The notes beneath the pieces are model-generated. The model was not told the DNA's origin, ran no database searches, and was given only the letters and a program-made list of their open reading frames with translations. Both the position numbers and the translations under genes were made by a program. This document shows, piece by piece, positions 3,824 to 24,000 of a DNA stretch of 24,000 bases. The stretch comes from Bacillales bacterium UBA7476 (GTDB lineage: Bacteria > Bacillota_I > Bacilli_A > RF39 > UBA660), in NCBI GenBank assembly GCA_002477275.1, contig DLOU01000020.1, positions 21,781-45,780 on the forward strand, written 5' to 3'. Each line of letters begins with the position of its first letter. Positions within the stretch are counted from its first letter, which is position 1.

Positions 3824-5239
3824 ATGAAGAGATTAAATAAGTTAATTAAATGTAAATATAAAACACCAATATATGGTATTAAAACTAATTCAAATGAAGT
3901 AGTTTATGGAGATCTTTTTGTTGCTGTTCATGGTATGAATTATGATCATCATGATTATATTTTCGATGCTATAGAAAAAGGAGCTGTAGCGATTATTAGT
4001 GAGAAAAAGATAAATACTGATGTACCTGTTGTTATAGTTAAAAATACTAATAAAGTACTTAATAGAATTCTTAAAAAGTTTTATGAAAATATAGAAGAAG
4101 AATTTTCATTTATTGGTATTACTGGTACTGATGGAAAAACAACTACTTCAACCTTTATTTCTTATATTTTATCAGATATACTTAATTGTTCTAATATTGG
4201 TACAAATGGACTTTATTATAAGGATTATTATGAATGTTTAGATAATACAACTCCATCTATTGAAGAACTATCTAATTGTCTATTAAAACTAAACATTTTG
4301 GGGTGTAAATATGTTTCTATGGAAGTGTCTAGTGAAGCACTATTACACAAAAGATTAGATAACATTAAATATAATGTCGGAATATTGACAAATATTACAG
4401 AAGATCATTTAAATGTTCATCATAATATTAATAATTATGTTCTTTCTAAATCATTACTTTTTAGTAAAATTGATAAAAATGGTTTTGCATTGTTAAATAA
4501 AGATGATAAATATTTTGATACTATTTTTTCAAAATGTAATTGCAAAATCTTTACATATGGTTTTGATGTAAATTCTGATTTTGTTATCTGTAAAACTGAT
4601 GACAACATAAAGTCAAATTGCTTTAATATTTTACATGATGAAACAGTATATGAAATAGAAACAAATTTTATGGAAGAATACAATTTATATAATATTACAG
4701 CTGCTTTTGCTTGTTCTTTTTTACTTGGTGTTGATTCCACATATATTATTACTAAAATAAAAAGTTTAAATACTATTCCTGGTAGAGGAGAAAAACTTAA
4801 TTTTGGACAAGATTATACAATCATACTTGATTATGCTCATACTGAAAATGCTATTAAAAATATTTTATCCACATGTTCTGTTAATAAAAAAAATAAAATA
4901 ATTACTTTAACTGGAAGTGCTGGTGGAAGAGAAAAAGAAAAAAGAAGTAAGATTGGAAAAATGGTTACTGATTTATCTGATTTAGTTATTTTTACAGAAG
5001 ATGATCCAAGAGATGAAGATGTTTTTGATATTATTGATGATATGCTTTCTTTTGTTAAAAAAAATAATTATGAAATAATTGAGGATAGAAAAGAAGCTAT
5101 TTATTATGCTTTATCTATTGCTGAAAAAGATGATATTGTTTTAATTTTAGGTAAGGGAAGAGATAATTATATGGCTATTGGTAATAAAAAAATTTATTAT
5201 TGCGATTACGATGTTATTAGTTCTTATTTTATAGACTGA
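3824..5239 (+). CDS. murE: MurE-type Mur ligase (UDP-MurNAc-L-Ala-D-Glu:diamino-acid ligase)
   Basis: GDLFVAVHG..DHHDYIFDAIEKGAVAII is the MurE N-terminal domain and GITGTDGKTTT is the P-loop. NTTPS, EVSSEAL, NITEDHLNVHH and a C-terminal EDDPRDED (DNPR-type) motif are also present. No SD precedes the ATG. Confidence 0.8.
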   Translation: MKRLNKLIKCKYKTPIYGIKTNSNEVVYGDLFVAVHGMNYDHHDYIFDAIEKGAVAIISEKKINTDVPVVIVKNTNKVLNRILKKFYENIEEEFSFIGITGTDGKTTTSTFISYILSDILNCSNIGTNGLYYKDYYECLDNTTPSIEELSNCLLKLNILGCKYVSMEVSSEALLHKRLDNIKYNVGILTNITEDHLNVHHNINNYVLSKSLLFSKIDKNGFALLNKDDKYFDTIFSKCNCKIFTYGFDVNSDFVICKTDDNIKSNCFNILHDETVYEIETNFMEEYNLYNITAAFACSFLLGVDSTYIITKIKSLNTIPGRGEKLNFGQDYTIILDYAHTENAIKNILSTCSVNKKNKIITLTGSAGGREKEKRSKIGKMVTDLSDLVIFTEDDPRDEDVFDIIDDMLSFVKKNNYEIIEDRKEAIYYALSIAEKDDIVLILGKGRDNYMAIGNKKIYYCDYDVISSYFID

Positions 5240-6910: not shown

Positions 6911-6952
6911 AAAGAAGCTTATTGGTTAACTTCAATCTTAGCTTCTTTTTTT
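6911..6952. terminator. Putative bidirectional terminator shared by convergent rny and rnj
   Basis: AAAGAAGCT (6911-6919) pairs with AGCTTCTTT (6940-6948) around a 20-nt loop. A T-run follows on the + strand and an A-run precedes it, which reads as a T-run on the - strand. The hairpin overlaps the last codons of rnj. Confidence 0.45.
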
Positions 6953-8616
6953 ATGTCTAAAATAATTGGTAAAATAATAGGTTTTCGACCTGTTAATTCA
7001 TTTATAAATGGAATTAAATCTGCCATCAATTCATTTTTTATACTAGCAAATGTAGAAGTTTGTTCTTTTAGTTGTTCTTTTACGACTTTTTCAGCTTCTG
7101 TTTCAATTTTTTTGATAAGTTCTTCATTTTCATTTACTTGTATAAATCCTCTTGTTGTAATGTTTGGTTTAATTAATAATTCATGTTTTTTCATATCGAC
7201 ATTTACAATAACAACTAAAATTCCATCTCCAGCCATTATTTTTCTATCACGAATAACTGCACCACCAATTTCACCAATTCTATTTCCGTCTACATATATA
7301 TCTGCTCCTGGTTTACTTTCTCCTCTTGTTAACTCATGGTCAACTAAATCTAAAGTATCACCATTTTTTAATATAAATGTATTTTCTTTTGGAATACCGC
7401 ATTCAATTCCTAAATTTGCATGTCTTTTTAACATTCTATAATCACCATGGAATGGCATTAGATACTTAGGTTGTAGTAATCTAATCATTAATTTTAATTC
7501 TTCTTGATTAGCATGTCCTGATGTATGTAATCCACTTAATGATTTATTTGTATATACTGACACACCGTTTAAGCATAGTTTATTAATTATTTTTGAAATA
7601 CTTAATGCATTTCCTGGAATAGCACTTGAAGAGAATATAACTATGTCATCTGGTCTTAATTTTACATATTTATGACTACCATTAGACATACGTGATAAAG
7701 CAGCAAGTGGTTCTCCTTGAGTTCCTGTACAAAGTATTGCAACTTCACTTGGTTTATAATTGTTTAACTCTTCTGGTTGAATAAGAATTTCTTTGTGATT
7801 TATATAACCACCTTCAATTGATATTCTTATGTTGTTTTCCATACTTCTACCAAATAGACATACTTTTCTACCGTGTTTAAAGCAAGTATCAAAAATATGT
7901 TTAACTCTATATACGTTTGATGCAAAAGTAGCAATAATAATTCTTTGTTGTGGATATTTTTCAAACATACTATTTAAGGCATTATCAACTTTAGATTCAC
8001 TTGTTGAAAAACCTTCACTAAGAGCATTAGTTGATTCACTTATTAACACATCTACACCTTCATGCCCTAAAGTAGCAATTTTGTATAAATCTGCCATAGG
8101 TCCAATAGGAGTTAAGTCAAATTTAAAGTCTCCAGTAGTTACTATTCTTCCATCTGGAGTAGTAAGTGATATTCCATGTGAATCTGGAACAGAGTGTGTT
8201 ACTAAGAAGAATTCTACTTCAATTTCTCCAAATTTTAATTTTGTATCACCATCGTAAGCATAAAGATTGTCATAACGAATGTTACGATCAGCTAGTTTTA
8301 CAGCAATTAATTCTTTAGCATGTCTTGGAGCATATATAGCAGGTATTTCTAAACTTTGTATTAAGAATGGAATACTACCAATATGATCTTCATGACCATG
8401 AGTAATTAATAAAGCTTTAATTTTATCTTGGTTTTCTTTTAAAAAAGTAAAGTCTGGAAGAACATAATCAACTCCCATTAGTTCACTTTCAGGAAAACTA
8501 ACACCGGCATCAATAATAACAATAGAGTCGTTATGCATTACACAATACATATTTTTTCCGACTTCTCCTAAACCACCTAAAACAATTATTTTTGTTCCGT
8601 TTGGTTTTTTATTCAT
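6919..8616 (-). CDS. rnj: Ribonuclease J (metallo-beta-lactamase / beta-CASP)
   Basis: The N-terminus is IIVLGGLGEVGKNMY and the motif is LITHGHEDHIG. The beta-CASP and C-terminal domains cover the full length (565 aa). A strong SD (AAAGGAGAAA on the - strand) lies upstream of the ATG. Confidence 0.95.
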   Translation of the reverse strand: MNKKPNGTKIIVLGGLGEVGKNMYCVMHNDSIVIIDAGVSFPESELMGVDYVLPDFTFLKENQDKIKALLITHGHEDHIGSIPFLIQSLEIPAIYAPRHAKELIAVKLADRNIRYDNLYAYDGDTKLKFGEIEVEFFLVTHSVPDSHGISLTTPDGRIVTTGDFKFDLTPIGPMADLYKIATLGHEGVDVLISESTNALSEGFSTSESKVDNALNSMFEKYPQQRIIIATFASNVYRVKHIFDTCFKHGRKVCLFGRSMENNIRISIEGGYINHKEILIQPEELNNYKPSEVAILCTGTQGEPLAALSRMSNGSHKYVKLRPDDIVIFSSSAIPGNALSISKIINKLCLNGVSVYTNKSLSGLHTSGHANQEELKLMIRLLQPKYLMPFHGDYRMLKRHANLGIECGIPKENTFILKNGDTLDLVDHELTRGESKPGADIYVDGNRIGEIGGAVIRDRKIMAGDGILVVIVNVDMKKHELLIKPNITTRGFIQVNENEELIKKIETEAEKVVKEQLKEQTSTFASIKNELMADLIPFINELTGRKPIILPIILDIKKEAKIEVNQ

Positions 8617-12726: not shown

Positions 12727-13017
12727 ATGGAAGAAATTGTTTATTATTCTGAATTATATGATTTATATAAAAAATTATTAACTGATAAACAGCAAGAATA
12801 TTTTGAGGAATACTATTTTAATAATTTATCGCTTAGTGAAATATCAAATGATTTTGATATAAGTCGTAATGCTGTTTCAAAACAACTTGCTGTTATTAGA
12901 GAAAAACTTGATGAATATGAATTAAAACTAGGTTTATATAAGAAGTTAGAACAAATAAAAAAATCTGTTGATGATGAGAGATTAAAAGATAAGATTATTG
13001 ATATATTGTTATCATAA
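12727..13017 (+). CDS. ylxM: YlxM/UPF0122 putative HTH protein (SRP-operon associated)
   Basis: LYDLYKKLLTDKQQEYFEEYYFNNLSLSEISNDFDISRNAVSKQL matches the B. subtilis YlxM pattern (LFDFYQSLLT.KQ..Y..LYY..D.SLGEIAEE..VSRQAV). It starts 1 nt after the upstream stop. Confidence 0.85.
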   Translation: MEEIVYYSELYDLYKKLLTDKQQEYFEEYYFNNLSLSEISNDFDISRNAVSKQLAVIREKLDEYELKLGLYKKLEQIKKSVDDERLKDKIIDILLS

Positions 13018-13123: not shown

Positions 13124-15604
13124 ATGTTTGATAAGATAGTCTATATTAGTGATAAGGGTGCTAATGTAAAATTAAAAGCAGATGCTGATTTAACATTTAA
13201 CTTAATGAATTTACATGTAATTTTTGAAGATGCGGAAAAAACAGTTTTAGGAGAAGTAGATGATCTTGATGGAGATTTAGTTAAGATCAGGTTTTTGGGT
13301 GAAATAAAAAATAATAGGTTATATGGTGGTACTTTAAGAAAACCTACTCTTGATGCAAGTTGTCGTGTTATTAATGAAGAAGAAATTCCTCTTGTTACTG
13401 GTAAAGATGAATCAGGTTTTATGCTTCTTGGAAATAGCCCTTTCTATAATGATAGAGAAGTTTTCATGAATGTAAATGGATTCTTTAGTAATCACTTTGC
13501 TATTATGGGAAACAGTGGTTCTGGTAAAAGTTGTGGTGTTAGTAGAGTATTCCAAAATATGTTTGAAGACCAAAGATTGTTCCCTTATAAATCAAATATA
13601 ATTATGTTTGATTCTTCTGCTGAGTACTATAATGCTTTTAAAGATTTGTCTAGTATTAATTCTAATTATAACTATAGATTTATTTCCACAAATGAAATAG
13701 ATCCGTTTGCTGAAAAACTAAGATTACCTATTTACCTTTTAAATGAACAGGATTTAGCATTATTACTTAATGTTACAAGTCATTCCCAATTGCCAATTAT
13801 TGAGAGAATGTTAAAACTTGCTAGAATTTTTTCTCAGACAGAAGTAGATGCAAATGCTTATAAGAATCACTTAATAGCTAAAGCTATAATGACTATTCTA
13901 TATACTAATGAAACTTCTCCAAATAAGAGAAATGAAATATTTTCAATTATAGCTTCTTGTTCAACACCAGAGTTTACTTTAGAGTCAGTAATTCAAGGTG
14001 CTGGTTATACAAGAAAATTTAGAGAGTGTTTCTTAATAGATCAGTTTGGTAACTTTACTGAAAGTGTACTTATGACTGAGTATTTAAATAAATTTATTAA
14101 TCCAGATTTTGATAATTATGAGCCTGAAGGAAGTGTTTTCTTTGATTTAGATACATTAGAAAAGGCATTAAACTTTACTTTAATTAGTGAAGGTTGGTTA
14201 AGAAATCAAAATACTTATGGAGATTCTGTTACAATTAGAGTTAGACTTCATTCATTAATTGTTGGTCCTAATGCTAAATATTTTGAATATCCTGATTTTG
14301 TTACTCTTGAACAATTTATTTCTTCATTGTTAATTACTAATGGTAGAAAATACCAATTTGTTAATATTAATTTAGATGATGTTGATGATGTTTTTGCAAA
14401 AGTTATTGTTAAAATTTATTCAAGATTAATATTTAGTTTTGCTAAAGGATTATCTAATAGAGCTAGTATTCCTTTCCATCTAATTGTAGAAGAAGCTCAT
14501 AGATATATTCAGAACGATACCGATACATTCTTAATTGGATATAATATATTTGACCGTATTGCAAAAGAAGGACGTAAGTATGGTGTAATTCTTGGTTTAA
14601 TTACTCAAAGACCAGTGGAAATGAGTGATACTGTTATTTCTCAGTGTTCTAATTTCTTAATATTTAAGATGAATCACCCTGCTGATGTTGAATATATTCG
14701 TAAGATGGTCCCAAATATTAGTGATGAAATTGTTGAAAAACAAAAAACACTTCAATCTGGTACTTGTTTAGCATTTGGTATGGCATTTACTATTCCATTA
14801 ATAGTTAGGTTAAAAATGCCTAATCCAGAGCCTAAGAGTGGAAACTGTGATGTTGTTAGAATTTGGGATGGTAATGCTGGTGGCGGAGGAAATAGTATTC
14901 AAACTCCACAACAACCTCAAGCACCTCAAAAGAATGAAGAACCTGTACAACCTCAGATTCCTCAAATTCCTCAAGGATTACAACCTATACAGAATCCTAA
15001 TGATTTTAATCCAAGTAATCCCTTTACTTTGGGACAACCAACTGATGCTCCTCAATTAATGGGAAATACTAATAATCAAGGGAAAGAAAGTAATGGATTA
15101 AATTTGATGGGAATGAATAATAACGGATTAAATTTAATGAGTCAACCGGAAAACAATGAAAATAATAATCCAAATAATGATGGTAATAATGGATTTAATT
15201 TGATGAGTCAACCAGAAAATAGTAATAATACTAGTAGTGATGGTGGCAATGGATTTAATCTAATGAGTCAGCCAGAAGATAATAGTTCTTCTAATGGTCT
15301 TATAAAGAGTGCTACTCCTGCTTCTGATGATAATGGTTCAAACCCATTGATGCAGCCATATAATAGTGTTCAAAATTATAATTCTAATGTTGATGATGGT
15401 GCATTAAATCCTAATAACTTAGAAGTTCCTAATCCTGGAAATATTCCATTAGGTTCTCAGAATTTTATTAATACGACGGATAGTTTATCTCCTAATATTG
15501 AATTACCTAAACAACAACCTCAAATTATAATTCCAGGTGGTCAAAATTTCTCACCTAGTTTAATGGAAGGTTTTGGAGATGCTGCTGTTTCTACAGGAGA
15601 ATAG
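13124..15604 (+). CDS. HerA/FtsK-superfamily (DUF87-like) ATPase with a long disordered P/Q/N-rich C-terminal tail
   Basis: Walker A is HFAIMGNSGSGKS (13508-13531) and Walker B is PFHLIVEEAHRY (about 14480-14506). IAKEGRKYGVILGLITQRPVEMSDTVISQCSNFLIFKMNHPADVEYI is typical of HerA. The N-terminus is barrel-like (VKLKAD...LGEVDDLDGDLVKIRFLGEI). The tail starts near nt 14870. Confidence 0.85.
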   Translation: MFDKIVYISDKGANVKLKADADLTFNLMNLHVIFEDAEKTVLGEVDDLDGDLVKIRFLGEIKNNRLYGGTLRKPTLDASCRVINEEEIPLVTGKDESGFMLLGNSPFYNDREVFMNVNGFFSNHFAIMGNSGSGKSCGVSRVFQNMFEDQRLFPYKSNIIMFDSSAEYYNAFKDLSSINSNYNYRFISTNEIDPFAEKLRLPIYLLNEQDLALLLNVTSHSQLPIIERMLKLARIFSQTEVDANAYKNHLIAKAIMTILYTNETSPNKRNEIFSIIASCSTPEFTLESVIQGAGYTRKFRECFLIDQFGNFTESVLMTEYLNKFINPDFDNYEPEGSVFFDLDTLEKALNFTLISEGWLRNQNTYGDSVTIRVRLHSLIVGPNAKYFEYPDFVTLEQFISSLLITNGRKYQFVNINLDDVDDVFAKVIVKIYSRLIFSFAKGLSNRASIPFHLIVEEAHRYIQNDTDTFLIGYNIFDRIAKEGRKYGVILGLITQRPVEMSDTVISQCSNFLIFKMNHPADVEYIRKMVPNISDEIVEKQKTLQSGTCLAFGMAFTIPLIVRLKMPNPEPKSGNCDVVRIWDGNAGGGGNSIQTPQQPQAPQKNEEPVQPQIPQIPQGLQPIQNPNDFNPSNPFTLGQPTDAPQLMGNTNNQGKESNGLNLMGMNNNGLNLMSQPENNENNNPNNDGNNGFNLMSQPENSNNTSSDGGNGFNLMSQPEDNSSSNGLIKSATPASDDNGSNPLMQPYNSVQNYNSNVDDGALNPNNLEVPNPGNIPLGSQNFINTTDSLSPNIELPKQQPQIIIPGGQNFSPSLMEGFGDAAVSTGE
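15092..15310 (+). repeat. In-frame tandem motif repeats inside the HerA-like tail
   Basis: The copies are NGLNLMG (15092), NGLNLMSQPEN (15122), NGFNLMSQPEN (15188), NGFNLMSQPED (15248) and a degenerate NGLIKS (15293). The nucleotide spacing between full copies is 66 and 60 nt. Confidence 0.8.
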
Positions 15605-15627: not shown

Positions 15628-15657
15628 TTGTTTTTTAAGTACAAATTACTTTATAAT
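15628..15657 (+). promoter_or_regulatory. Candidate promoter of ffh
   Basis: TTGTTT (15628-15633), an 18-nt spacer, then a perfect TATAAT (15652-15657), just after the upstream terminator. Confidence 0.35.
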
Positions 15658-15673
15658 GGTATTGGTGATATAT

Positions 15674-16981
15674 ATGTTTGAAAACTTAGGTGACAGATTA
15701 CAAAATGCAATACATAAAATAAAAGGTTATGGAAAAATTACCGAAGAAAACATTAGTGAGGTAATGAGGGAGATACGTCTTGCATTATTAGAAGCTGATG
15801 TTAACTATAAAGTTGTAAAAGAATTTACTAATACAGTAAAAGAAAAAGCACTAGGTGAAGAAGTAAAAAAGAGTATTAATCCTGGTGATATGTTCGTAAA
15901 AATTGTAAATGATGAATTAACAGAACTTCTTGGTGGAGAAAGTGCTCCTTTGAATTTATCTGGTAATCCAGCAGTACTTATGCTTGTTGGACTTCAGGGT
16001 AGTGGTAAAACTACTACAATTGGTAAACTTGCTAATTTTTTAAGAAAAAAACATGCTAAAAAACCATTATTAGTTGCTTGTGATGTTTATAGACCAGCAG
16101 CTATAGATCAGTTAAAACAAATTGGTAAACAACTTAATATAGAAGTTTATGAAGAAGGTAAAAATAATCCTGTTGAGATTAGTAAAAATGCAATTAAATA
16201 TGCAAAAGAAAATGGTTATGATTATGTTTTGATAGATACTGCTGGTAGACTTCATATTGATACTGAGTTAATGGAAGAGTTACAAAATATTTATAGTGAG
16301 ATTTTACCTAAAGAAGTATTACTTGTAATTGATTCTATGATGGGTCAAGATGCTATCAATGTTATTGAAGGATTTAATGAATCATTAAGTCTTACAGGTG
16401 TAATCCTTACAAAACTAGATGGAGACACAAGAGGTGGTGTTGCTCTTTCTGTTAGACATCTTACTAATGTACCAATTAAGTTTATTGGTGTTTCTGAAAA
16501 ATTAGATGGACTTGAGAATTTTGATCCTGAAAGGATGGCTGGAAGAATTCTTGGAATGGGTGATATTGTATCACTTGTTGAAAAGGCAGAAGAAGCTATA
16601 GATGAAAAGGAAGCAGAAAAAACTGTTAAGAGACTTCAAGCAGGTAAATTTGATTTAGAAGACTTTCTATCTACTATGAAACAGATGAAAAAATTAGGAC
16701 CTTTAGAATCTTTAATTAAGATGATACCTGGAGCTAAAAAAATGGGTCTTAATAATGTTAAAGTTGATCCTAAACAAATGGCTCATGTTGAAGCAATTGT
16801 TCTTTCTATGACACCAGAAGAAAGGCGTAATCCTGATATAATAAAAGCAAGTCGTAAAACAAGAATTGCTAAAGGATGTGGACTTTCTGTTCAAGAGGTA
16901 AATAAATTATTGACACAGTTTGAACAAATGAAAAAAATGATGAAACAAATGAAGAATGGCAATTTTAAAATGCCTTTTTAG
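15674..16981 (+). CDS. ffh: Signal recognition particle protein Ffh
   Basis: The ATG at 15674 gives the canonical MFENLGDRLQ. GLQGSGKTTTIGK, DTAGRLH, TKLDGDTRGG and a Met-rich M domain (MKQMKKLGPLESLIKMIPG...) are present. GGTGA acts as the SD. The track start at 15656 is unlikely. Confidence 0.97.
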   Translation: MFENLGDRLQNAIHKIKGYGKITEENISEVMREIRLALLEADVNYKVVKEFTNTVKEKALGEEVKKSINPGDMFVKIVNDELTELLGGESAPLNLSGNPAVLMLVGLQGSGKTTTIGKLANFLRKKHAKKPLLVACDVYRPAAIDQLKQIGKQLNIEVYEEGKNNPVEISKNAIKYAKENGYDYVLIDTAGRLHIDTELMEELQNIYSEILPKEVLLVIDSMMGQDAINVIEGFNESLSLTGVILTKLDGDTRGGVALSVRHLTNVPIKFIGVSEKLDGLENFDPERMAGRILGMGDIVSLVEKAEEAIDEKEAEKTVKRLQAGKFDLEDFLSTMKQMKKLGPLESLIKMIPGAKKMGLNNVKVDPKQMAHVEAIVLSMTPEERRNPDIIKASRKTRIAKGCGLSVQEVNKLLTQFEQMKKMMKQMKNGNFKMPF

Positions 16982-17569: not shown

Positions 17570-17905
17570 ATGTTTAATGATCAGAATTTAAGTAATGTTA
17601 TGGATTTTGATTCTAATGTTAGTGGAAGTAATAATTTTTCATATAATGATGTAGATTTTAATGTTAATCAAAATATGATGAATGATGGTATGATGATGAA
17701 TAATAGTATGCCATCTACTTGTGAACAACCACGTGAAAGATGTATTCACAGAACCTTTGTACATGAAGTACCACATGTTTGTCCTATAAAAACAAGAATA
17801 ATTAATCATCATGTATATCGTCATACTTATAGACCAGAATATTCTTGTTGTGAAGAAAATGTAGTAAGTAATGTTCAATGTGGTTCTTGTTGTGATTTTA
17901 ATTAA
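17570..17905 (+). CDS. CotD-family (inner spore coat protein D-like) Cys/His-rich small protein
   Basis: The SD is AGGAGG. RCIHRTFVHEVPHVCPIKTRIINHHVYRHTYRPEYSCC...CCDFN parallels B. subtilis CotD (CCEHHTFSKTIVPHIHPQHTTNVNHQHFQHVHYFPHTFS...CCDY, recalled from memory). The N-terminal half is N/M-rich and low-complexity. Confidence 0.65.
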   Translation: MFNDQNLSNVMDFDSNVSGSNNFSYNDVDFNVNQNMMNDGMMMNNSMPSTCEQPRERCIHRTFVHEVPHVCPIKTRIINHHVYRHTYRPEYSCCEENVVSNVQCGSCCDFN

Positions 17906-17926
17906 AGGTCTTTGACCTTTTTTTTG
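17904..17926 (+). terminator. Rho-independent terminator
   Basis: AAGGTC (17905-17910) pairs with GACCTT (17914-17919) around a TTT loop, followed by a T-run. Confidence 0.7.
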
Positions 17927-17990
17927 TAAAGTATTTTCCTTTTATTATCAATTTTTTCTATTTGATGATATACCTAAAATAGGTGATAAT

Positions 17991-18725
17991 ATGTATGATG
18001 ATTTAAGAGATATGAATGTTGGAATTATTTTTAGGAGGAATGCATCAGGAGATAGATATATTTTTTATTCTCCAGTTATTCTTTCTCCTTCAAAGAGTTT
18101 TCGTGGACAAAAATATTTTTCAGTTTCATATGGAGCTTTTCAGGATAGGAGTTTTTCTAGTGATCAAGTTCTTACTTTTGATAGTAAAAAAGTTCTTTCA
18201 ACGCTTCAGAGTAAGAAGGATACTCTTGGTTTAGATGGTAAAATTGGAGATAAAAAAGATTTAATAGTACTTCTTTTAAATGATGAACTTAGAGAGTATG
18301 TATATAATGAATTAAGAAAAGGTGGTAAAGAACCATCTCCGTCAGATTTTCTTGTTAGTTTATCTGGCTTTGCATATAATGTTGGTAATTCTATTGATTA
18401 TATTATGCCTGGAAAACTTAGATCATTTACATGCTTTACTAAAGAAACTTCTGAAGTAAAGAATTTTTCACATAAGGTTTCTGAGGATGAGTACCAATTT
18501 TTAAATAATAATGTTTTTTCAAATAAGAGACAAAAGAAGACTGAAGAAGCAAAGGCTGTTGCTAGTCAATCTTCAAATGTTAGGTATACAACTCCACCAT
18601 CAACTATTTCAAAAAAGAGTGCAACCCCGGCACGTAAAATTACAGTAGAAAAAAAGAAAAAAGAAAAGGAAGAAGAAAAAGGAAGAAGTAGTATTGGAAA
18701 AAGATTTAACAACAGAGAAAATTGA
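17991..18725 (+). CDS. Hypothetical protein with a K/E-rich C-terminus, possibly the N-terminal part of a frameshifted fusion with the next ORF
   Basis: The ATG follows AGGTGA. No motif recognised. The 3' end overlaps the next ORF in the +1 frame within an A-rich tract. Confidence 0.5.
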   Translation: MYDDLRDMNVGIIFRRNASGDRYIFYSPVILSPSKSFRGQKYFSVSYGAFQDRSFSSDQVLTFDSKKVLSTLQSKKDTLGLDGKIGDKKDLIVLLLNDELREYVYNELRKGGKEPSPSDFLVSLSGFAYNVGNSIDYIMPGKLRSFTCFTKETSEVKNFSHKVSEDEYQFLNNNVFSNKRQKKTEEAKAVASQSSNVRYTTPPSTISKKSATPARKITVEKKKKEKEEEKGRSSIGKRFNNREN

Positions 18726-19536
18726 TCCAAGAGAAATAAAAAAGGAACTTAAAAAGAAAATGAATTTACCTTTTATTGTGGCACCTGCTAATAGTTTTTC
18801 AACTGTTGGATATAAAGGAGCTGATATTACTGATGTATTAGTAAAACTACTTGATCAAGCACAGGGTGATTTAGAACTTGCTGAAAGAGGAGTAATTGCT
18901 TTTGATGAGTTTGATAAAATAGGTTATTCAGGAGATGATAAAGGTTTATCTATGAATCTTGGTATTCAACAAGAACTTCTTACTTTTATTGAGGGTGCAA
19001 CATATGATGTTGAATATAATGGAAAAACTTATGAATTTGATACATCTAAACTTACTATTGTTGCGATGGGAGCCTTTACTAATTTAAGGGAAAGAAAAAT
19101 AGCTGAGAATGAAAAGAAAAATAAACCTTCTTTAGGTTTTTCTGGCAATAGTGATGATGATTATGAAAGAGTGTATACTATTACAGAAGATGACTATATA
19201 GGTGAAGGATTAGGTAGAGAACTTGTTGGACGTTTTTCTTGTCTAGCATTCACTGAAGAGTTAGGTGTGGAAGATTTAGAAAGAATATTAAAAGAAAGTG
19301 AATCAAGTCCTTTAAAATCTTTAATTTTTGATGGTAAAATTAATGGCTGTGAAATAACTGTTAGTGATGAAGTTATTCATGAAATTGCTTTAAGGGCTTA
19401 TAAATCAAATGTTGGAGTTAGAGGATTAAATCGAATTTGTAAATCAATAAGAAATATTATTTCTAATGATTTAATTGATAAAGTTCCTGAAATTGTCATT
19501 ACAAGTGAACATTTAGATAAGATAAATAGTTTTTAA
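18694..19536 (+). CDS. ClpX-family AAA+ module lacking the Walker A P-loop and the zinc-binding domain
   Basis: It aligns by eye to E. coli ClpX from LDVPFTMADAT onward. Matches are NLPFIVAPANSFSTVGYKG (pore-loop GYVG becomes GYKG), Walker B GVIAFDEFDKI, GIQQELLTFIEG, DTSKLTIVAMGAF, ELVGRFSCLAFTEEL and GVRGLNRICKSI. There is no GPTGSGKT equivalent. The start is uncertain (TTG 18694 or ATG 18760). Confidence 0.6.
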   Translation: MEKDLTTEKIDPREIKKELKKKMNLPFIVAPANSFSTVGYKGADITDVLVKLLDQAQGDLELAERGVIAFDEFDKIGYSGDDKGLSMNLGIQQELLTFIEGATYDVEYNGKTYEFDTSKLTIVAMGAFTNLRERKIAENEKKNKPSLGFSGNSDDDYERVYTITEDDYIGEGLGRELVGRFSCLAFTEELGVEDLERILKESESSPLKSLIFDGKINGCEITVSDEVIHEIALRAYKSNVGVRGLNRICKSIRNIISNDLIDKVPEIVITSEHLDKINSF

Positions 19537-19567
19537 AATAGAACTTATCATGAAAGGACAATATGAT

Positions 19568-19924
19568 ATGATGAAATTTAAAAATGTCGAAACTTTAACA
19601 GCTAAAGAGAAAGTAACAAATATTAGTATTGAAATATTAAATGAATATCCTGAAATAGGTACAGATTTATCTATTGAAATAGCTGCCTTATGTGATTCTG
19701 TTGATGATGTAGTAGATGAAGATGTGATTTTTAAAAGATATTACTACATACTTTGGAAGTTAGGAAAAAATCATCCATTATTTGATAAAGTACTTAGTGA
19801 TATGAAAAATCTTTGTGCAGGTTCCTTAAAAGATGAAATTAATAAAAGTTTATATGAAGAAATAATTAAATATGATAATAATGAAATATCAAGTTTTCCT
19901 TCTATAAGTGATTATTATGGATAA
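19568..19924 (+). CDS. Hypothetical acidic protein (about 118 aa)
   Basis: The in-frame ATGs at 19568 and 19571 lie 9-12 nt after AAAGGA (19553-19558). The track start at 19550 has no SD. No motif recognised. Confidence 0.5.
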   Translation: MMKFKNVETLTAKEKVTNISIEILNEYPEIGTDLSIEIAALCDSVDDVVDEDVIFKRYYYILWKLGKNHPLFDKVLSDMKNLCAGSLKDEINKSLYEEIIKYDNNEISSFPSISDYYG

Positions 19925-20026: not shown

Positions 20027-20710
20027 ATGAATATTCAAAATACTTTTAGAAGAGTTGAACAGAAATATGTTCTGGATAAAAAACAATATAAAATAATTAA
20101 AGATAGTATTTCTGAACATTTTGACAAAGATAAGTTTCCAACTAGTAAAATTTACAATATATATTTTGATAATGATAATAATGACTTAATTATTAACTCA
20201 TTAGAAAAACCTGTATATAAAGAAAAGTTTAGAGTAAGAAAATATGGTGATAGTGGTGAAATATTTTTAGAAATGAAACAGAAGTATAAAAGTGTTGTTT
20301 ATAAGAGAAGGGTTATTTTAACTCAAGATGAATATGATGCTTATTTAGATGATGGTATTTTTCCTTCTCATGATAAACAAATTATGAGTGAGATTGATTA
20401 TTATATGAAGTATTATAATTTAAAGCCATTTATGGTTGTTGCTTATGATAGAGAAAGTTTTTTATCAAAGGATGATTCAGATTTTAGATTAACTTTTGAT
20501 CATAATTTAAGAAGTAGAGATAATAAATTAATTTTAGAAGATGATGAAAGCGATAAAATGTATTTTTCAGATGAAAAATGGATAATGGAATTAAAAAGTA
20601 CAAATAATTTACCATTATGGTTTATTGATATTTTATCAAAAAATAAAATATATCCTGTATCATTTTCGAAGATAGGTAATATATATAAAAAGGAAAGAGG
20701 TAATGTTTAA
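20027..20710 (+). CDS. VTC-domain (triphosphate-tunnel, polyphosphate-polymerase-like) protein
   Basis: FRRVEQKYVL at the N-terminus, IYNIYFDNDNNDL, EKFRVRKYG, FLEMKQKYKSVVYKRR and WIMELKS are alternating charged beta-strand motifs typical of CYTH/VTC tunnel proteins. The SD is AAAGGAGA. Confidence 0.8.
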   Translation: MNIQNTFRRVEQKYVLDKKQYKIIKDSISEHFDKDKFPTSKIYNIYFDNDNNDLIINSLEKPVYKEKFRVRKYGDSGEIFLEMKQKYKSVVYKRRVILTQDEYDAYLDDGIFPSHDKQIMSEIDYYMKYYNLKPFMVVAYDRESFLSKDDSDFRLTFDHNLRSRDNKLILEDDESDKMYFSDEKWIMELKSTNNLPLWFIDILSKNKIYPVSFSKIGNIYKKERGNV

Positions 20711-21375
20711 TGTTAAATAGTGTTTTATCAAGTAGTGGTTTAACATTGGGAAGTTTATTAATTTGTTCACTTGCATCAATTATTTTTGGATTAATAATAG
20801 CTTTAGTTCATATGAAAACTTCAAAATATACAAAGAATTTTTTAATAACTTTAATTATTTTACCAATACTTGTTCAAACTGTAATTTTTATGGTTAATGG
20901 TAATTTAGGAACTTCAATAGCAATAGTAGGAGCATTTAGTTTAGTTAGATTTAGATCTGTAGCTGGAACAAGTCGTGAAATTGTTAGTATTTTCTTTGCA
21001 ATGGCTATTGGTCTTGCTACTGGAATGGGTCAAATTGTTTTTGCAGCAATTATTACTGTTCTTGTCAGCTTAATTTTAGTAATATTAAGTATTTCAAAAT
21101 TTGGAGAAGGAAGTAATTCTACAAAGAAATTAAAAATAACTATTCCTGACAATGTAGATTATACCGAAGTGTTTGATGATATATTTGATAAATATCTTGA
21201 AAAATCAACTTTAGATAGTGTTAAAACTGTAAATTTAGGAAGTTTATTTGAACTTACTTATACTGTTAATCTAAAGAATAATGTTAATGAGAAAAAATTT
21301 GTTGATGATTTAAGATGTAGAAATGGAAATTTAAAAATAATTTTAACTCATCCAATAAATGATGGAGAATTATAA
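20710..21375 (+). CDS. DUF4956-like membrane protein
   Basis: It has 4 predicted TM segments and SLVRFRSVAGTSREIVSIFFAMAIGLATGMG, followed by a soluble C-terminal domain. Its start overlaps the VTC gene stop (TAATG). Confidence 0.75.
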   Translation: MLNSVLSSSGLTLGSLLICSLASIIFGLIIALVHMKTSKYTKNFLITLIILPILVQTVIFMVNGNLGTSIAIVGAFSLVRFRSVAGTSREIVSIFFAMAIGLATGMGQIVFAAIITVLVSLILVILSISKFGEGSNSTKKLKITIPDNVDYTEVFDDIFDKYLEKSTLDSVKTVNLGSLFELTYTVNLKNNVNEKKFVDDLRCRNGNLKIILTHPINDGEL

Positions 21376-21376
21376 T

Positions 21377-23077
21377 ATGAAGAAAAAACGAATAATAATT
21401 ATTTTATCAATTATTATAGTAGTTGCTTTATCTACTTGTTTGATATTCTATTTTAAAAATAAGAATAGTAAAAGTAGTAAAAATGATGTCTCAAGTATTG
21501 ATACTAATATTAAAGTAGATAATGGTGATGAAAAAATTGATTGGGATAGTATGAAAACTACTAAGGTTACTTTAAGTAAAAGTTTAAAAATTACAGAGGA
21601 AGGTGTATATATATTAACCGGTACTATAAGTAATGGTAGTATAACTGTTAATACAGATGGCAATGTAAAACTAGTTTTAAATGGTGTAAATATAACAAAT
21701 AATAGTGGTTCCGCAATATTAGTTGAGAATGCTAAAAATGTTGTTATTGAAACTAATGAAGGAACAACTAATAATTTAGAAGATGGATCTAATTATTCTG
21801 ATATTGAATATGATGGATGTATTTATTCTAAAGATGATTTAGTTTTACAAGGTAGTGGAACATTAAATGTTACAAGTAATTATTCTGATGCTATTGTATC
21901 AACTGATGATTTAAAAATTGTTAGTGGTACTTATAATATTAAGAGTCAAGATGATGGTATAAGAGGAAAAGATTCTGTATATATACTTGGTGGAACTATT
22001 AACATTGATAGTAATGCTGATGGTATTAAGTCTACAAATGATTCTGATTCTACAAAAGGATTTATTTATATAAAAAATGGTACTATTGTTATAAATAGTG
22101 TAGAAGATGCAATTCAGGCTCAAACTAAATTAATAATTGATGATGGTAATTTTGATATAACTACAAATGGTGGTAGTGGTCAAAGTGGATCGGCAGTTGA
22201 TAAATCCTTTGGAAGACAAACAACTTATGATGAAACAAGTGCTAAGGGTTTAAAAGCAGAAAGTAATTTAGTTATTAAAGGTGGTAACTTTAAGATAAAT
22301 AGTAAAGATGATGCTGTTCATTCTAATAATGATGTTGGTATTTCAAATGCTACAATGGAAATATCATCTGGTGATGATGGTATTCATGCTGATAGTAGTG
22401 TAATTATTGAAAGCGGAACAATAAATATTACTAAATCATATGAGGGAATAGAAGGTAAAAATATAACTGTTAATTCTGGTAATATTAGTTTAGTTTCAAG
22501 TGATGATGGATTTAATGTTAGTGGAGGTAATGATTCTTCAAGTATGAATGGAAGACCTGGACAAAATGGTGGTATGGATGCTGATTCTGGTGGAGTTTTA
22601 ACAATAAACGGTGGAACAATTTATGTTAGTGCCGATGGGGATGGACTTGATTCAAATGGTTCAATTACTATGACTGGAGGAATTGTTTATGTAGATGGAC
22701 CAACAAATAATGGTAATGGTGCTCTTGATTATAATGCAACATTCAATATTTCAGGAGGTAGTCTTATTGCAGTAGGAAGTAGTGGAATGGCACAAAGTAC
22801 TTCAACTTCTTCAAGTCAAATATCCATTCAATACTATTTAAGTGGTAATTATAGTGATAAGTTATCTATTGAAGATTCAAGTGGTAATGTTATTTTTGAA
22901 TATTCTCCTAAAAAATCATATCAAAATGTAGTTTATTCTTCAGGAGATTTAAAAGAAGGAGAAACGTATACTTTAAAAATAAATGGAAATAGTGTTGGAA
23001 CAGTTACAGCTAGTTCAATCGTTAATTCCAATGGAAGTGGAAATAATTATGGAATGCAAAGAGGAGGTAGAAGATAA
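21377..23077 (+). CDS. Secreted or anchored beta-helix repeat protein (carbohydrate-binding Cthe_2159-like)
   Basis: The ATG at 21377 follows GGAG (21364-21367), 1 nt after the upstream stop. There is an N-terminal signal/anchor (KKKRIIIILSIIIVVALSTC). Repeated units include DDGIRGKDSVYILGGTINI, DDAVHSNNDVGISNATMEI, DDGIHADSSVIIESGTINI and DGDGLDSNGSITMTGGIVYV. Confidence 0.7.
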   Translation: MKKKRIIIILSIIIVVALSTCLIFYFKNKNSKSSKNDVSSIDTNIKVDNGDEKIDWDSMKTTKVTLSKSLKITEEGVYILTGTISNGSITVNTDGNVKLVLNGVNITNNSGSAILVENAKNVVIETNEGTTNNLEDGSNYSDIEYDGCIYSKDDLVLQGSGTLNVTSNYSDAIVSTDDLKIVSGTYNIKSQDDGIRGKDSVYILGGTINIDSNADGIKSTNDSDSTKGFIYIKNGTIVINSVEDAIQAQTKLIIDDGNFDITTNGGSGQSGSAVDKSFGRQTTYDETSAKGLKAESNLVIKGGNFKINSKDDAVHSNNDVGISNATMEISSGDDGIHADSSVIIESGTINITKSYEGIEGKNITVNSGNISLVSSDDGFNVSGGNDSSSMNGRPGQNGGMDADSGGVLTINGGTIYVSADGDGLDSNGSITMTGGIVYVDGPTNNGNGALDYNATFNISGGSLIAVGSSGMAQSTSTSSSQISIQYYLSGNYSDKLSIEDSSGNVIFEYSPKKSYQNVVYSSGDLKEGETYTLKINGNSVGTVTASSIVNSNGSGNNYGMQRGGRR

Positions 23078-23790: not shown

Positions 23791-24000
23791 ATGATTTATC
23801 CATCTATAGATAAATTGCTTAATATCGTCGATTCAAAATATGAACTTGTACATATAGCGGCCAGACGAAGTAAGGAGATTTCTAAAACAGATTACTATCA
23901 AATGCCAGAAGGGGAATATAAATCAAAAAAGAATATTGGAAGAGCACTTGAAGAAGTAGAAAAGGGACTCCTTAAAGTTACGAAAAGCACTAATAATTAG
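23791..24000 (+). CDS. rpoZ: DNA-directed RNA polymerase subunit omega
   Basis: MIYPSIDKLLNIVDSKYELVHIAARRSKEI matches the Firmicute RpoZ N-terminus (M.YPSID.LL..VDSKY.LV..AAKRAR). The SD is GGGAG. The TAG stop falls at the window end. Confidence 0.85.
   Translation: MIYPSIDKLLNIVDSKYELVHIAARRSKEISKTDYYQMPEGEYKSKKNIGRALEEVEKGLLKVTKSTNN

Follow-up and report, generated by a model that had tools for sequence, protein, structure and literature searches.

Organization of the locus

The window, by which we refer to the entire analysed stretch of 24,000 nucleotides, contains between a small upstream gene and an intact small downstream gene two overlapping open reading frames whose combined features resemble those of a single, longer gene encoding a ClpX-like AAA+ protein. 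The features of this region, all on the forward (+) strand, are as follows:

17904..17920, +, terminator-like hairpin at the end of the gene upstream, which encodes a 111-aa His/Cys-rich protein (consensus scan)
17962..17990, +, weak promoter-like site and Shine-Dalgarno sequence AGGTGA located 5 nt before the ATG at 17991 (inferred from pattern)
17991..18725, +, ORF of 244 aa with the family N-terminal domain (about residues 1-150) and a K/E/S-rich linker (homologue alignment)
18649..18725, +, frameshift zone, open in both frames, where the ORFs can be joined only by a +1 shift (sequence; homologues are single ORFs across the linker)
18694..19536, +, ORF of 280 aa with a TTG start, encoding the remnant of a ClpX-like AAA+ protein without Walker A (profile and structure-sequence matches)
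18721..18759, +, conserved motif IDPREIKKELKKK, left flank of the deletion (homologue alignments)
18759..18760, +, deletion junction, 56 codons (168 nt) missing in frame (homologue alignments)
18808..18819, +, pore-1 loop GYKG, GYVG in ClpX (invariant in the family alignment)
18892..18918, +, Walker B strand VIAFDEFDK (family and ClpX alignments)
19129..19146, +, SLGFSG, IGF-like loop located where ClpX carries its ClpP-docking loop (aligned with ClpX GIGFGA/RGLGFGA)
19219..19233, +, ELVGR, arginine-finger region, EFIGR in ClpX (family and ClpX alignments)
19414..19428, +, GVRGL, sensor-2 motif, GARGL in ClpX and the family (family and ClpX alignments)
19534..19566, +, premature TAA (19534-19536; CAA, Gln, in relatives) followed by the ancestral tail NRTYHERTI and the stop TGA (19564-19566) (alignment of relatives)
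19550..19924, +, intact partner gene 'o124', whose true start is probably the ATG at 19568 with the Shine-Dalgarno sequence AAAGGA before it (conserved neighbour)

The hairpin at 17904..17920 would mark the beginning of a new transcription unit, as judged from a pattern match in a scan that returned one site versus 0.4 expected. The promoter-like site that follows at 17962..17990 shows 9 of 12 matches in a scan that overall does not exceed shuffled sequences. A CotD-like identity of the His/Cys-rich neighbour found no support in Pfam, even at E-values up to 1.

Relationship of the AAA+ module to ClpX

The 280-residue ORF matches the Pfam family AAA_2 from profile position 24 on and in addition ClpB_D2-small, it covers positions 127-400 of the 418 positions of the NCBIfam ClpX equivalog (E 6e-37), and its residues 17-274 are matched by solved ClpX structures (phmmer, E 1e-26). 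These results support the proposal, made in a preliminary description of the sequence, that the ORF aligns with ClpX all the way from the LDVPF-type strand to its end. In phmmer alignments with 8yd0 and 6wr2, GYKG, FDEFDK, ELVGR and GVRGL fall in register with the equivalent motifs of ClpX. The pore-1 loop, Walker B, arginine finger, sensor-2 and small domain are retained, and the motifs occupy the places where they had been described. The IGF-like loop SLGFSG had escaped attention in that description; in its alignment to ClpX GIGFGA, the first residue of the IGF-equivalent in this predicted loop is Leu. RBS-like AGGA sequences are located 5' of the TTG at 18694.

Among known families, ClpX (PDB 6vfs, 8yd0, 3hws) scores best for the remnant as well as for intact homologues, and it shares the same order of elements, leading from the TPxEI..L/VIGQ helix to Walker A, an LDVPF-type strand, GY(V/K)G and Walker B and continuing with the IGF-like loop, the arginine finger, the sensor-2 motif GxRGL and the small domain. 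Nonetheless, the scores of the remnant (127.5 and 114.3 bits) are far below the cut-offs of the ClpX equivalogs NF003745 (359 bits) and TIGR00382 (370.75 bits), and the intact homologues P0023 and P0077 reach about 165 bits. HslU (ClpY), the second-best known family and, like ClpX, part of the ClpX/HslU clade of AAA+ unfoldases, gives fragmented matches with a score of 62.5 bits for the remnant compared to a cut-off of 362, and its I-domain insertion is absent from the remnant, which instead contains an IGF-type loop.

The relatives of the remnant were defined by 223 database matches (best E-values 1e-111 to 1e-40), and the AAA+ module is 40-80% identical to members of a family of unnamed ClpX-like proteins of about 450-600 aa, which originate from MAGs of uncultured low-GC Bacilli. 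In this family, a GxTGTGKT motif precedes Walker B by 64 residues in every full-length member examined, and the gene constitutes a single intact ORF in 47 of 50 loci from GTDB representative genomes. The remnant has kept all 22 invariant columns of a family alignment of 36 sequences. Several features set the family apart from ClpX. In place of the C4 zinc-binding domain of ClpX, the family carries an N-domain of alpha/beta type that is unrelated to it and measures about 130-300 aa, and NCBIfam scans of P0023, P0077 and P0010 detected only AAA+-type matches that start beyond the N-terminal domains. The family also contains a downstream partner of about 118 aa that is absent from ClpX operons. 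The IGF loop, which is present in ClpX, is found in the clade of the window and some subfamilies, whereas it is missing in others such as P0009, P0012 and P0023, and the family may thus mix protease-coupled and stand-alone unfoldases, as judged by the presence or absence of this loop. On sequence grounds, the gene is a member of a separate ClpX-like family with its own N-domain and not a ClpX devoid of its zinc finger. The zinc-binding domain that was previously listed as lost is not a property of this family, a different N-domain residing in the upstream ORF 17991-18725, and no C4 zinc-binding domain was detected in the ORFs of the window with Pfam and NCBIfam.

A defence-system or phage origin finds no support in PADLOC, where only generic weak AAA matches were obtained for the ATPase (IetA, E 1e-4 to 1e-6), and PHROGs matched with nothing but an unannotated ClpX-like family. 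A literature search on Walker-A-less paralogues or pseudogenes of ClpX found nothing relevant.

Deletion of the Walker A segment

In intact homologues, the motif IDPREIKKELKKK (IDPxEIxxxIKxKV), which aligns with TPxEI...L of ClpX through homologue P0023, directly precedes V-I-G-Q-D. In the window it passes straight into MNLPFIV (18760-), and the span from KIDP to GYKG encompasses 34 residues compared to 90 in the intact homologue P0009, corresponding to a loss of 56. The direct junction of a PREIKKEL-type linker with MNLPFIV and the resulting absence of the Walker A segment (GPTGSGKT in ClpX) were recognized correctly before, and the number of missing residues is now defined as exactly 56. The extent of the damage was understated in the view that everything except the P-loop is preserved: besides GxTGTGKT, the deletion comprises the VIGQD helix, the central strand beta-1 and helix alpha-1.

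A scan of all six frames from 16013 to the end of the window at 24000, including the remnant ORF, revealed no Walker A motif, in line with the earlier statement that no nearby frame encodes a P-loop, and it rules out a split gene whose Walker A has moved nearby. In the relative L003, both breakpoints of the deletion are flanked by the microhomology AAGAAA / GAAAAA of about 6 nt, and no repeat of at least 16 nt that could cause an assembly collapse is found near the junction at 18759/18760.

The N-terminal reading frame and the C-terminal end

The ORF at 17991-18725 aligns with the N-termini of full-length homologues, including P0006, P0010 and P0009, and is 33% identical (tblastn) to the region at the same position in L002. 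Judged by these alignments, this ORF and the AAA+ ORF stem from a single ancestral gene, of which it makes up the 5' part, and its interpretation as an unrelated gene is ruled out. AlphaFold2 predicts residues 1-160 to form an alpha/beta domain (pLDDT 82, pTM 0.78) for which neither Pfam nor NCBIfam, PADLOC or a fold search of the PDB (best E 0.15) returned a significant match. Between both ORFs, the frameshift zone contains three A-runs, A7 at 18649-18655, A6 at 18657-18662 and A5 at 18676-18680.

At the other end, the sequence of the window reads INSF*NRTYHERTI*, where the closely related contigs L120 and L121 read INSFQNRIYHERTK*, and the same tail of 10-11 residues is present in L001, L002 and L003. 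The premature TAA thus strips the ATPase of its conserved last 10 residues. Two residues have changed in the 9 codons following the premature stop, compared to two window-specific changes in the 79 codons preceding it, which hints at drift past this position. The frameshift and the premature stop constitute two lesions that were overlooked in the proposal that exactly the Walker A and the zinc-binding domain were lost.

The partner gene, which encodes a protein of about 118 aa, is the only conserved neighbour of the family and is located directly 3' of the ATPase gene in 43 of 54 loci. Its alignment contains 421 database homologues, none of which is functionally named or carries a Pfam domain, and matches in NCBIfam and PADLOC are equally absent. 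The AlphaFold2 model (pLDDT 84) is a helical bundle without a significant match in the PDB (best E 2.8). The copy in the window is 92% identical to that of L120, with a dN/dS of 0.14 (NG86) or 0.06 (ML).

Lesions in related lineages

The nearest lineages are each damaged in a different way. The gene of L001 (80% amino acid identity) is truncated upstream of GDLELAERG, where it abuts a Ser_hydrolase gene, and has kept an open C-terminal ORF of 244 aa that covers the C-terminal approximately 225 codons of the ATPase; L119, a second contig of the same species, begins 15 nt from this breakpoint. In L002 the frame is shifted by +1 within a T6 run, a lesion that recurs in the separate assembly L084, which differs by one residue, and in L003 a TAA replaces the Glu of GR-E-L. 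The 56-codon deletion of the window was found in no relative examined. The preliminary description had associated an intact Walker A in close relatives, together with relaxed selection on this copy, with a pseudogene or an artefact, and the motif is in fact intact in L002 and L003 (about 60% identity to the window) and throughout the wider family. L002 shows the same gene order as the window, with ffh and an unrelated ORF (about 170 aa) ahead of the small His/Cys-rich protein, which is followed by the ATPase and the partner; both ATPases are therefore orthologues, and the term paralogue, which had been used in relation to ClpX, does not apply to this member of a separate family.

A conserved subfamily without Walker A was ruled out, since such database matches turned out to be fragments at contig edges, a scaffold gap or 5' truncations: the apparent truncation of L122 (P0114) is a scaffold-gap artefact, and in the 5'-truncated L123 the Walker A is still in frame. 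Elsewhere in the family, the gene of L010 is interrupted at an A9 run and that of L048 by a similar frameshift. L120 and L121, contigs of 746 nt, are closer to the window and contain no more of the ATPase than its last 89 codons. The exact remnant protein has no record in the databases searched, and a search for a second assembly of the organism had a best match of 45% identity in GTDB and yielded only L084, from the species of L002, in metagenomes.

Selection on the retained part

In a comparison with L001 over 224 codons, the remnant shows a dN/dS of 0.33 (NG86) or 0.09 (ML), and an intact neighbouring gene in the same comparison is similar at 0.23 (NG86) or 0.10 (ML). Across methods and partners, values for the remnant range from 0.09 to 0.36 and are slightly above those of the neighbouring gene. 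At the 67 columns where 78 intact members show a conservation of at least 85%, only four substitutions are present in the window, all of them conservative and three shared with L001; the remaining one, the exchange of Ala by Val in sensor-2 (GARGL to GVRGL), is the sole window-specific change at a conserved column. The low dN/dS and the nearly intact columns are compatible with either recent inactivation or retained constraint.

Discussion

We consider the region 17991-19566 to represent a single ancestral gene in a broken state and 18694-19536 to be best read as a fragment of a young pseudogene, an interpretation to which we assign a probability of roughly 0.7. The ancestral product would have been a protein of about 530 aa, in which a linker rich in K and E connected the family N-domain to a ClpX-like AAA+ unfoldase module with an IGF-like loop, with the small partner gene tightly linked behind. 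Three independent lesions would have disrupted it: a change of one base in a poly-A stretch of the linker, by which the ORFs of the N-domain and the ATPase were parted, the in-frame deletion of 168 nt between short A-rich microhomologies, presumably by slippage, and the nonsense mutation of CAA to TAA that removes the conserved last residues. We observe these lesions directly, as we do the intact state of the family and the damage in relatives, and infer their order and age as well as the loss of function that would result.

In AAA+ proteins, the strands of the central sheet are arranged in the order 5-1-4-3-2 with beta-1 in the middle. Because of this central location, a product devoid of beta-1 would be unable to bind ATP and probably to fold, and based on the known AAA+ fold, the ability to form hexamers would most likely be lost as well. 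The retained part has barely eroded, and the inactivation would thus be recent, with too little time having passed for the remaining ORF to lose its preservation. The three types of lesions, a homopolymer frameshift, a microhomology deletion and a nonsense mutation, are those of ordinary pseudogenes, as is the coexistence of intact orthologues with independently damaged relatives. The window differs from such cases in the low divergence of the sequence between the lesions, and if it is a pseudogene it would be a very young one. Several observations argue against decay. The retained part is hardly eroded, with a dN/dS that resembles that of the intact neighbouring gene, the sister lineages represented by the window and L001 keep the same part after different 5' lesions, and the species of the window is known from one contig, in which the poly-A frameshift could be a sequencing error, similar frameshifts being present in L010 and L048.

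Of the three readings that had been offered for the lack of the P-loop, a decayed gene is thus the one that is favoured, given the three lesions, the unshared deletion, the intact Walker A of every full-length family member examined and the separate damage in relatives, and a poisoning or regulatory subunit and a repurposed scaffold are disfavoured. The strongest of the alternatives, which we still regard as unlikely, is that the remnant is expressed and functional without catalysis, either by binding the partner or by joining intact AAA+ hexamers to regulate or poison them. Such a role would agree with the low dN/dS and the almost untouched conserved columns, with the ORF that L001 has independently kept open over the same C-terminal 225 codons, with the intact and conserved partner gene and with the RBS-like AGGA upstream of the TTG. 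However, a low dN/dS is equally expected under recent inactivation, because the divergence from the relatives compared corresponds to a dS of 0.4-1.3, and the native fold of the large domain is unlikely to form without beta-1 and alpha-1. The conserved C-terminal tail is gone too, each lineage is broken at another place and does not share the deletion, and a subfamily lacking Walker A is absent from about 220 database matches and 50 representative genomes. A model for a regulatory subunit is provided by nucleotide-free proteins of the type of the clamp-loader subunit delta-prime (HolB), a AAA+ module that does not bind ATP and that works inside an ATPase assembly. Subunits of this type keep beta-1 and alpha-1, with only degenerate motifs, and they are conserved across species, whereas in the window these structural elements are deleted, in a state that is unique to one contig. 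Decay is favoured over a new regulatory subunit since the missing loop is one of three separate lesions. A more specific proposal, in which the C-terminal two-thirds of the ATPase, from the Walker B strand to the small domain, are kept under purifying selection in the lineages of the window and L001 after each had independently lost the nucleotide-binding N-terminal part, and serve as an ATP-free adaptor, for example in docking or stabilising the partner of about 118 aa, appears improbable, and it would, if true, make the retained fragment a natural case of a AAA+ piece that is re-used as a non-catalytic adaptor.

Similarly improbable is an origin of part or all of the pattern in sequencing or assembly, with the frameshift and the nonsense mutation as consensus errors and the gap of 168 nt as a mis-join or a minority deletion variant picked by the assembler. 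The restriction of the organism to one contig and of its exact protein to this record would be consistent with such errors, as would the homopolymer frameshifts in L010 and L048, the scaffold gap in L122 and the start of L119 close to the breakpoint of L001, which suggests a branching of the assembly graph there. Yet, the deletion is in frame and bounded exactly by conserved motifs with only about 6 nt of microhomology, and a repeat of sufficient length for a k-mer collapse is not found nearby. Moreover, three unrelated types of error in a single gene of 1.6 kb would be unusual, the other large ORFs of the window are of full length with recognizable domains, and the analogous frameshift of L002 recurs in a separate assembly. 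A conditional fusion of the N-domain to the Walker-A-deleted ATPase by phase variation or transcriptional slippage, for which the A7 and A6 runs located exactly at the overlap of frames and the split of L010 at a comparable run could be invoked, is very improbable, since the frame-restored protein would still lack beta-1, the P-loop, alpha-1 and the C-terminal tail. In a genome with a GC content of about 27%, chance alone would be expected to produce A-runs in a linker rich in K and E, and the tract is not conserved among relatives.

If regarded as ordinary gene decay, the loss of Walker A itself carries little weight. Of broader relevance is the cassette of two genes, a ClpX-like unfoldase with a novel N-domain and a helical partner of about 118 aa, which is widespread in uncultured Bacilli and wholly uncharacterised. 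In one of its clades, the ATPase gene has been disrupted in all sampled lineages, each time in another way, and the partner was kept. This amounts to a natural experiment on whether the ATPase is dispensable, and the repeated breakage could guide work on the function of the cassette. The Bacilli carrying it were recovered mostly from animal-gut metagenomes.

The ATPase remnant and its family

The ORF at 18694–19536 is best explained as a recently inactivated copy of a ClpX-like gene, in a clade that would have lost this ATPase repeatedly while keeping the adjacent partner gene, a reading to which we assign a probability of about 0.7. The features concerned are:

17904–17920, + strand, terminator-like hairpin (pattern match)
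17991–18725, + strand, N-domain ORF of 244 aa, aligning with the N-termini of the homologous database proteins P0006, P0010, P0009 and others
18694–19536, + strand, ClpX-like AAA+ ORF of 280 aa with a TTG start (ORF call)
19550–19924, + strand, intact partner gene (neighbour clustering, 54 loci)

The preliminary description of a ClpX-family module that has retained its other motifs upon loss of Walker A is borne out by profile and structure alignments. The NCBIfam ClpX equivalog is matched at profile positions 127–400 of 418 (E 6e-37) with 127 bits, for a curated cut-off of 359 bits; Pfam detects AAA_2 only from profile position 24 on, together with the ClpB_D2-small domain. In a search against solved structures, residues 17–274 align with ClpX residues 131–381 (E. 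coli numbering), beginning just after the P-loop helix, and GYKG pairs with the pore-1 loop GYVG, VIAFDEFDK with Walker B, SLGFSG (19129–19146) with the IGF loop, ELVGR with the arginine-finger motif EFIGR and GVRGL with the sensor-2 motif GARGL. No Walker A motif is found in any frame from 16013 to the window end, and the P-loops of the window are confined to RecA, FtsY, a HerA-like ATPase and Ffh.

The homologues of this ORF, 223 in a search of 5.8 billion proteins, are about 450–600 aa long and are not ClpX; their sources leave them unnamed or call them 'AAA family ATPase'. On the ClpX model, intact members score no more than about 165 bits, and an NCBIfam scan found no zinc-binding domain in them. 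The supposed loss of this domain was thus a misreading, since the family is devoid of it and the window copy has its own N-domain in the adjoining upstream ORF. As judged from sequence, ORF 17991–18725 encodes this family N-domain, sharing with the homologues the pattern phi-G-I-I-F-x-K-x-x-x-G-x-Y-x-Y and, after it, two helices. AlphaFold2 models its first 160 residues with confidence (pLDDT 82, pTM 0.78), and a fold search found no significant PDB neighbour (best E 0.15). GxTGTGKT is present in every full-length homologue, 64 residues before Walker B and 33 before the pore loop, and 47 of 50 GTDB representatives contain a single intact ORF, with Walker A in all. With one genome scanned per GTDB species, the family occurs in uncultured Bacilli MAGs, many from animal-gut samples, under record titles such as Ca. 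Coprovivens, Ca. Aphodocola, Ca. Onthousia, 'uncultured Tenericutes' and 'uncultured Erysipelotrichaceae'.

The motif order of the window module resembles that of ClpX/HslU-type unfoldases. From ClpX it differs in score, zinc finger and Walker A, the lack of the latter being specific to the window copy. In the family alignment, an IGF-like loop (S/L-I/L-G-F) occupies the ClpP-docking position in the window clade, P0077, P0101 and P0120 and is cleanly missing in P0009, P0012, P0017 and P0023, and the family may thus hold both ClpP-coupled and stand-alone forms. It is an uncharacterised variant of ClpX/HslU-type unfoldases with an N-domain of its own, an optional IGF loop and a small partner.

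Lesions in the window copy

Three lesions distinguish this copy. The N-domain and ATPase ORFs overlap in different frames at 18649–18725, in a K/E-rich linker that contains A7, A6 and A5 runs; joining them would take a +1 shift. Further downstream, IDPREIKKELKKK at 18721–18759, the motif preceding V-I-G-Q-D in homologues, is directly followed by MNLPFIV, and 34 residues separate KIDP from GYKG compared to 90 in P0009, hence 56 codons (168 nt) are missing. The related locus L003 reads AAG AAA/GTA and GAA AAA/ATG at the two breakpoints, a microhomology that would be typical of slippage deletions. At the 3' end, INSF-TAA is followed by NRTYHERTI-TGA. In L120 and L121, the closest contigs, the sequence is INSFQNRIYHERTK-stop, and L001, L002 and L003 share this tail; the last 10 residues, which are conserved, have hence been lost through a CAA-to-TAA change.

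Lost with the 56 codons are the helix before beta-1, beta-1, the P-loop and alpha-1. As beta-1 is a central strand of the AAA+ fold (strand order 5-1-4-3-2), the product would lack more than the ATP site. Nucleotide-free AAA+ subunits such as clamp-loader delta-prime retain the entire fold and are themselves conserved in that state, unlike the window remnant.

Relatives and partner gene

Besides the window copy, the window clade, defined by about 60–80% identity and a ENEKKNKPSLGFSG insertion, is represented by four samples. In L001 (80% identity) the coding region is cut short at its 5' end (777–930) and sets in abruptly at GDLELAERG, preceded by an unrelated Ser_hydrolase gene; L119, a second contig of the same species, begins 15 nt from that breakpoint. 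L002 retains Walker A but is shifted by +1 in a T6 run that directly follows ELVGRF (4150–4300); the identical frameshift in L084 (1220–1350), a separate assembly differing by one residue, rules out a random error. In L003, also with intact Walker A, TAA replaces Glu of GR-E-L (1560–1570), and the next 39 codons are still in frame and conserved. The gene order of L002 (ffh, an unrelated ORF of about 170 aa, a His/Cys-rich small protein, ATPase, partner gene) is that of the window, making the two orthologues. A search for orthologues sharing the 56-codon deletion found it in no relative. Each sampled lineage thus has its own, different ATPase lesion next to an intact partner gene, which suggests a clade-wide loss of the need for the ATPase.

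Elsewhere in the family roughly 3 of 50 members are damaged (L010, L048 and L123). These sporadic splits in public MAGs comprise a frameshift in an A9 run (L010, 4895–4915), another frameshift (L048, 5440–5580) and a 5' truncation before VIAQDD (L123, 1–340); L122 is interrupted by a scaffold gap of 100 N whose flanks are duplicated. Caution is needed with short 'Walker-A-less' database entries from this family.

Clustering of all ORFs identified a single conserved neighbour, the partner ORF (about 118 aa), which immediately follows the ATPase gene at 43 of 54 loci and often overlaps or abuts its stop codon. Its true start in the window is likely ATG 19568, preceded by the Shine-Dalgarno sequence AAAGGA. 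The family alignment holds at least 421 homologues, none with a functional name or Pfam domain, and its conserved motifs include M-x-F-E-Y-N-G-N-L, A-x-L-E-G-x-I-S, F-x-R-x-Y-N-I and a C-terminal F-P-x-L-x-D-Y/F. AlphaFold2 predicts a confident five-helix bundle (pLDDT 84) without PDB fold match; the protein has no NCBIfam or PADLOC match either, and PADLOC and PHROGs searches returned nothing specific. N-domain ORF, ATPase remnant and partner gene may form one transcription unit, as suggested by the hairpin at 17904–17920 and a good Shine-Dalgarno sequence ahead of ATG 17991.

Selection and alternative explanations

dN/dS of ATPase and partner gene in pairwise comparisons
ATPase, window vs L001: 224 codons; 0.33 (NG86), 0.09 (ML)
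Partner gene, window vs L001: 123 codons; 0.23 (NG86), 0.10 (ML)
ATPase C-terminus, window vs L120: 79 codons; 0.36 (NG86), 0.09 (ML)
Partner gene, window vs L120: 124 codons; 0.14 (NG86), 0.06 (ML)

The ratios of 0.09–0.36 on the ATPase fit a young remnant and retained constraint alike. Of 67 columns conserved in 85% or more of 78 intact members, 16 are gaps in the window owing to the deletion and only 4 carry conservative substitutions, 3 of them common to L001. Of the 9 codons after the premature stop, 2 are changed, compared to 2 window-specific changes in the 79 codons before it. The remnant is either young or still constrained, both of which fit these data. If decayed, it must have been inactivated recently relative to its divergence from L001 (dS 0.4–1.3), since an old pseudogene would be expected to show further indels.

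A functional, non-catalytic remnant finds support in the low dN/dS and in L001, which has kept its own remnant in parallel; we nevertheless regard this reading as unlikely, since the fold core and the C-terminal tail are gone and the lesions are not common to relatives. Slightly less probable still is a sequencing or assembly artefact: only one contig covers the organism, and data of this kind do contain homopolymer errors, but three error types within one gene are unlikely, a deletion that removes 168 nt cleanly and in frame, with nothing but microhomology at its borders, does not resemble an assembler error, and no long repeat able to cause assembly collapse is found near it. A poly-A slippage switch is highly improbable, as the protein would remain crippled even with its frame restored. 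With recent inactivation as the preferred reading, the loss of Walker A would reflect ordinary decay.

Other features of the window

The window (GC about 27%) has positive GC skew throughout, except over its single large minus-strand gene (6919–8616), presumably RNase J; the plus strand carries almost every other large ORF. Its content, which we take to include recA, murE-like, RNase Y-like, ftsY and ffh genes, suggests core chromosome from a Bacilli lineage with a small genome. A HerA/DUF87-type ATPase of 826 aa (13124–15604), with a Q/P/N-rich C-terminal tail of about 250 aa containing repeated 'GFNLMSQPE' units, lies between a ylxM-like gene (12727–13017) and ffh (15656–16981), which are usually neighbours in Bacillota. 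The protein of 111 aa at 17570–17905 is rich in N and M at its N-terminus and in His and Cys in its C-terminal half (HRTFVHEVPHVCPIKTRIINHHVYRHTYRPEYSCCEENV...); it is 67% conserved at the same position in L002, and a resemblance to spore-coat CotD gets no support from Pfam, which reports no hit even at E up to 1. Genes for a VTC-domain protein (20027–20710) and a DUF4956 membrane protein (20710–21375) overlap end to end; the gene after them encodes a protein of 572 aa that has a hydrophobic segment at its N-terminus and a Cthe_2159 carbohydrate-binding-like domain, and the three look like one operon (20027–23077).
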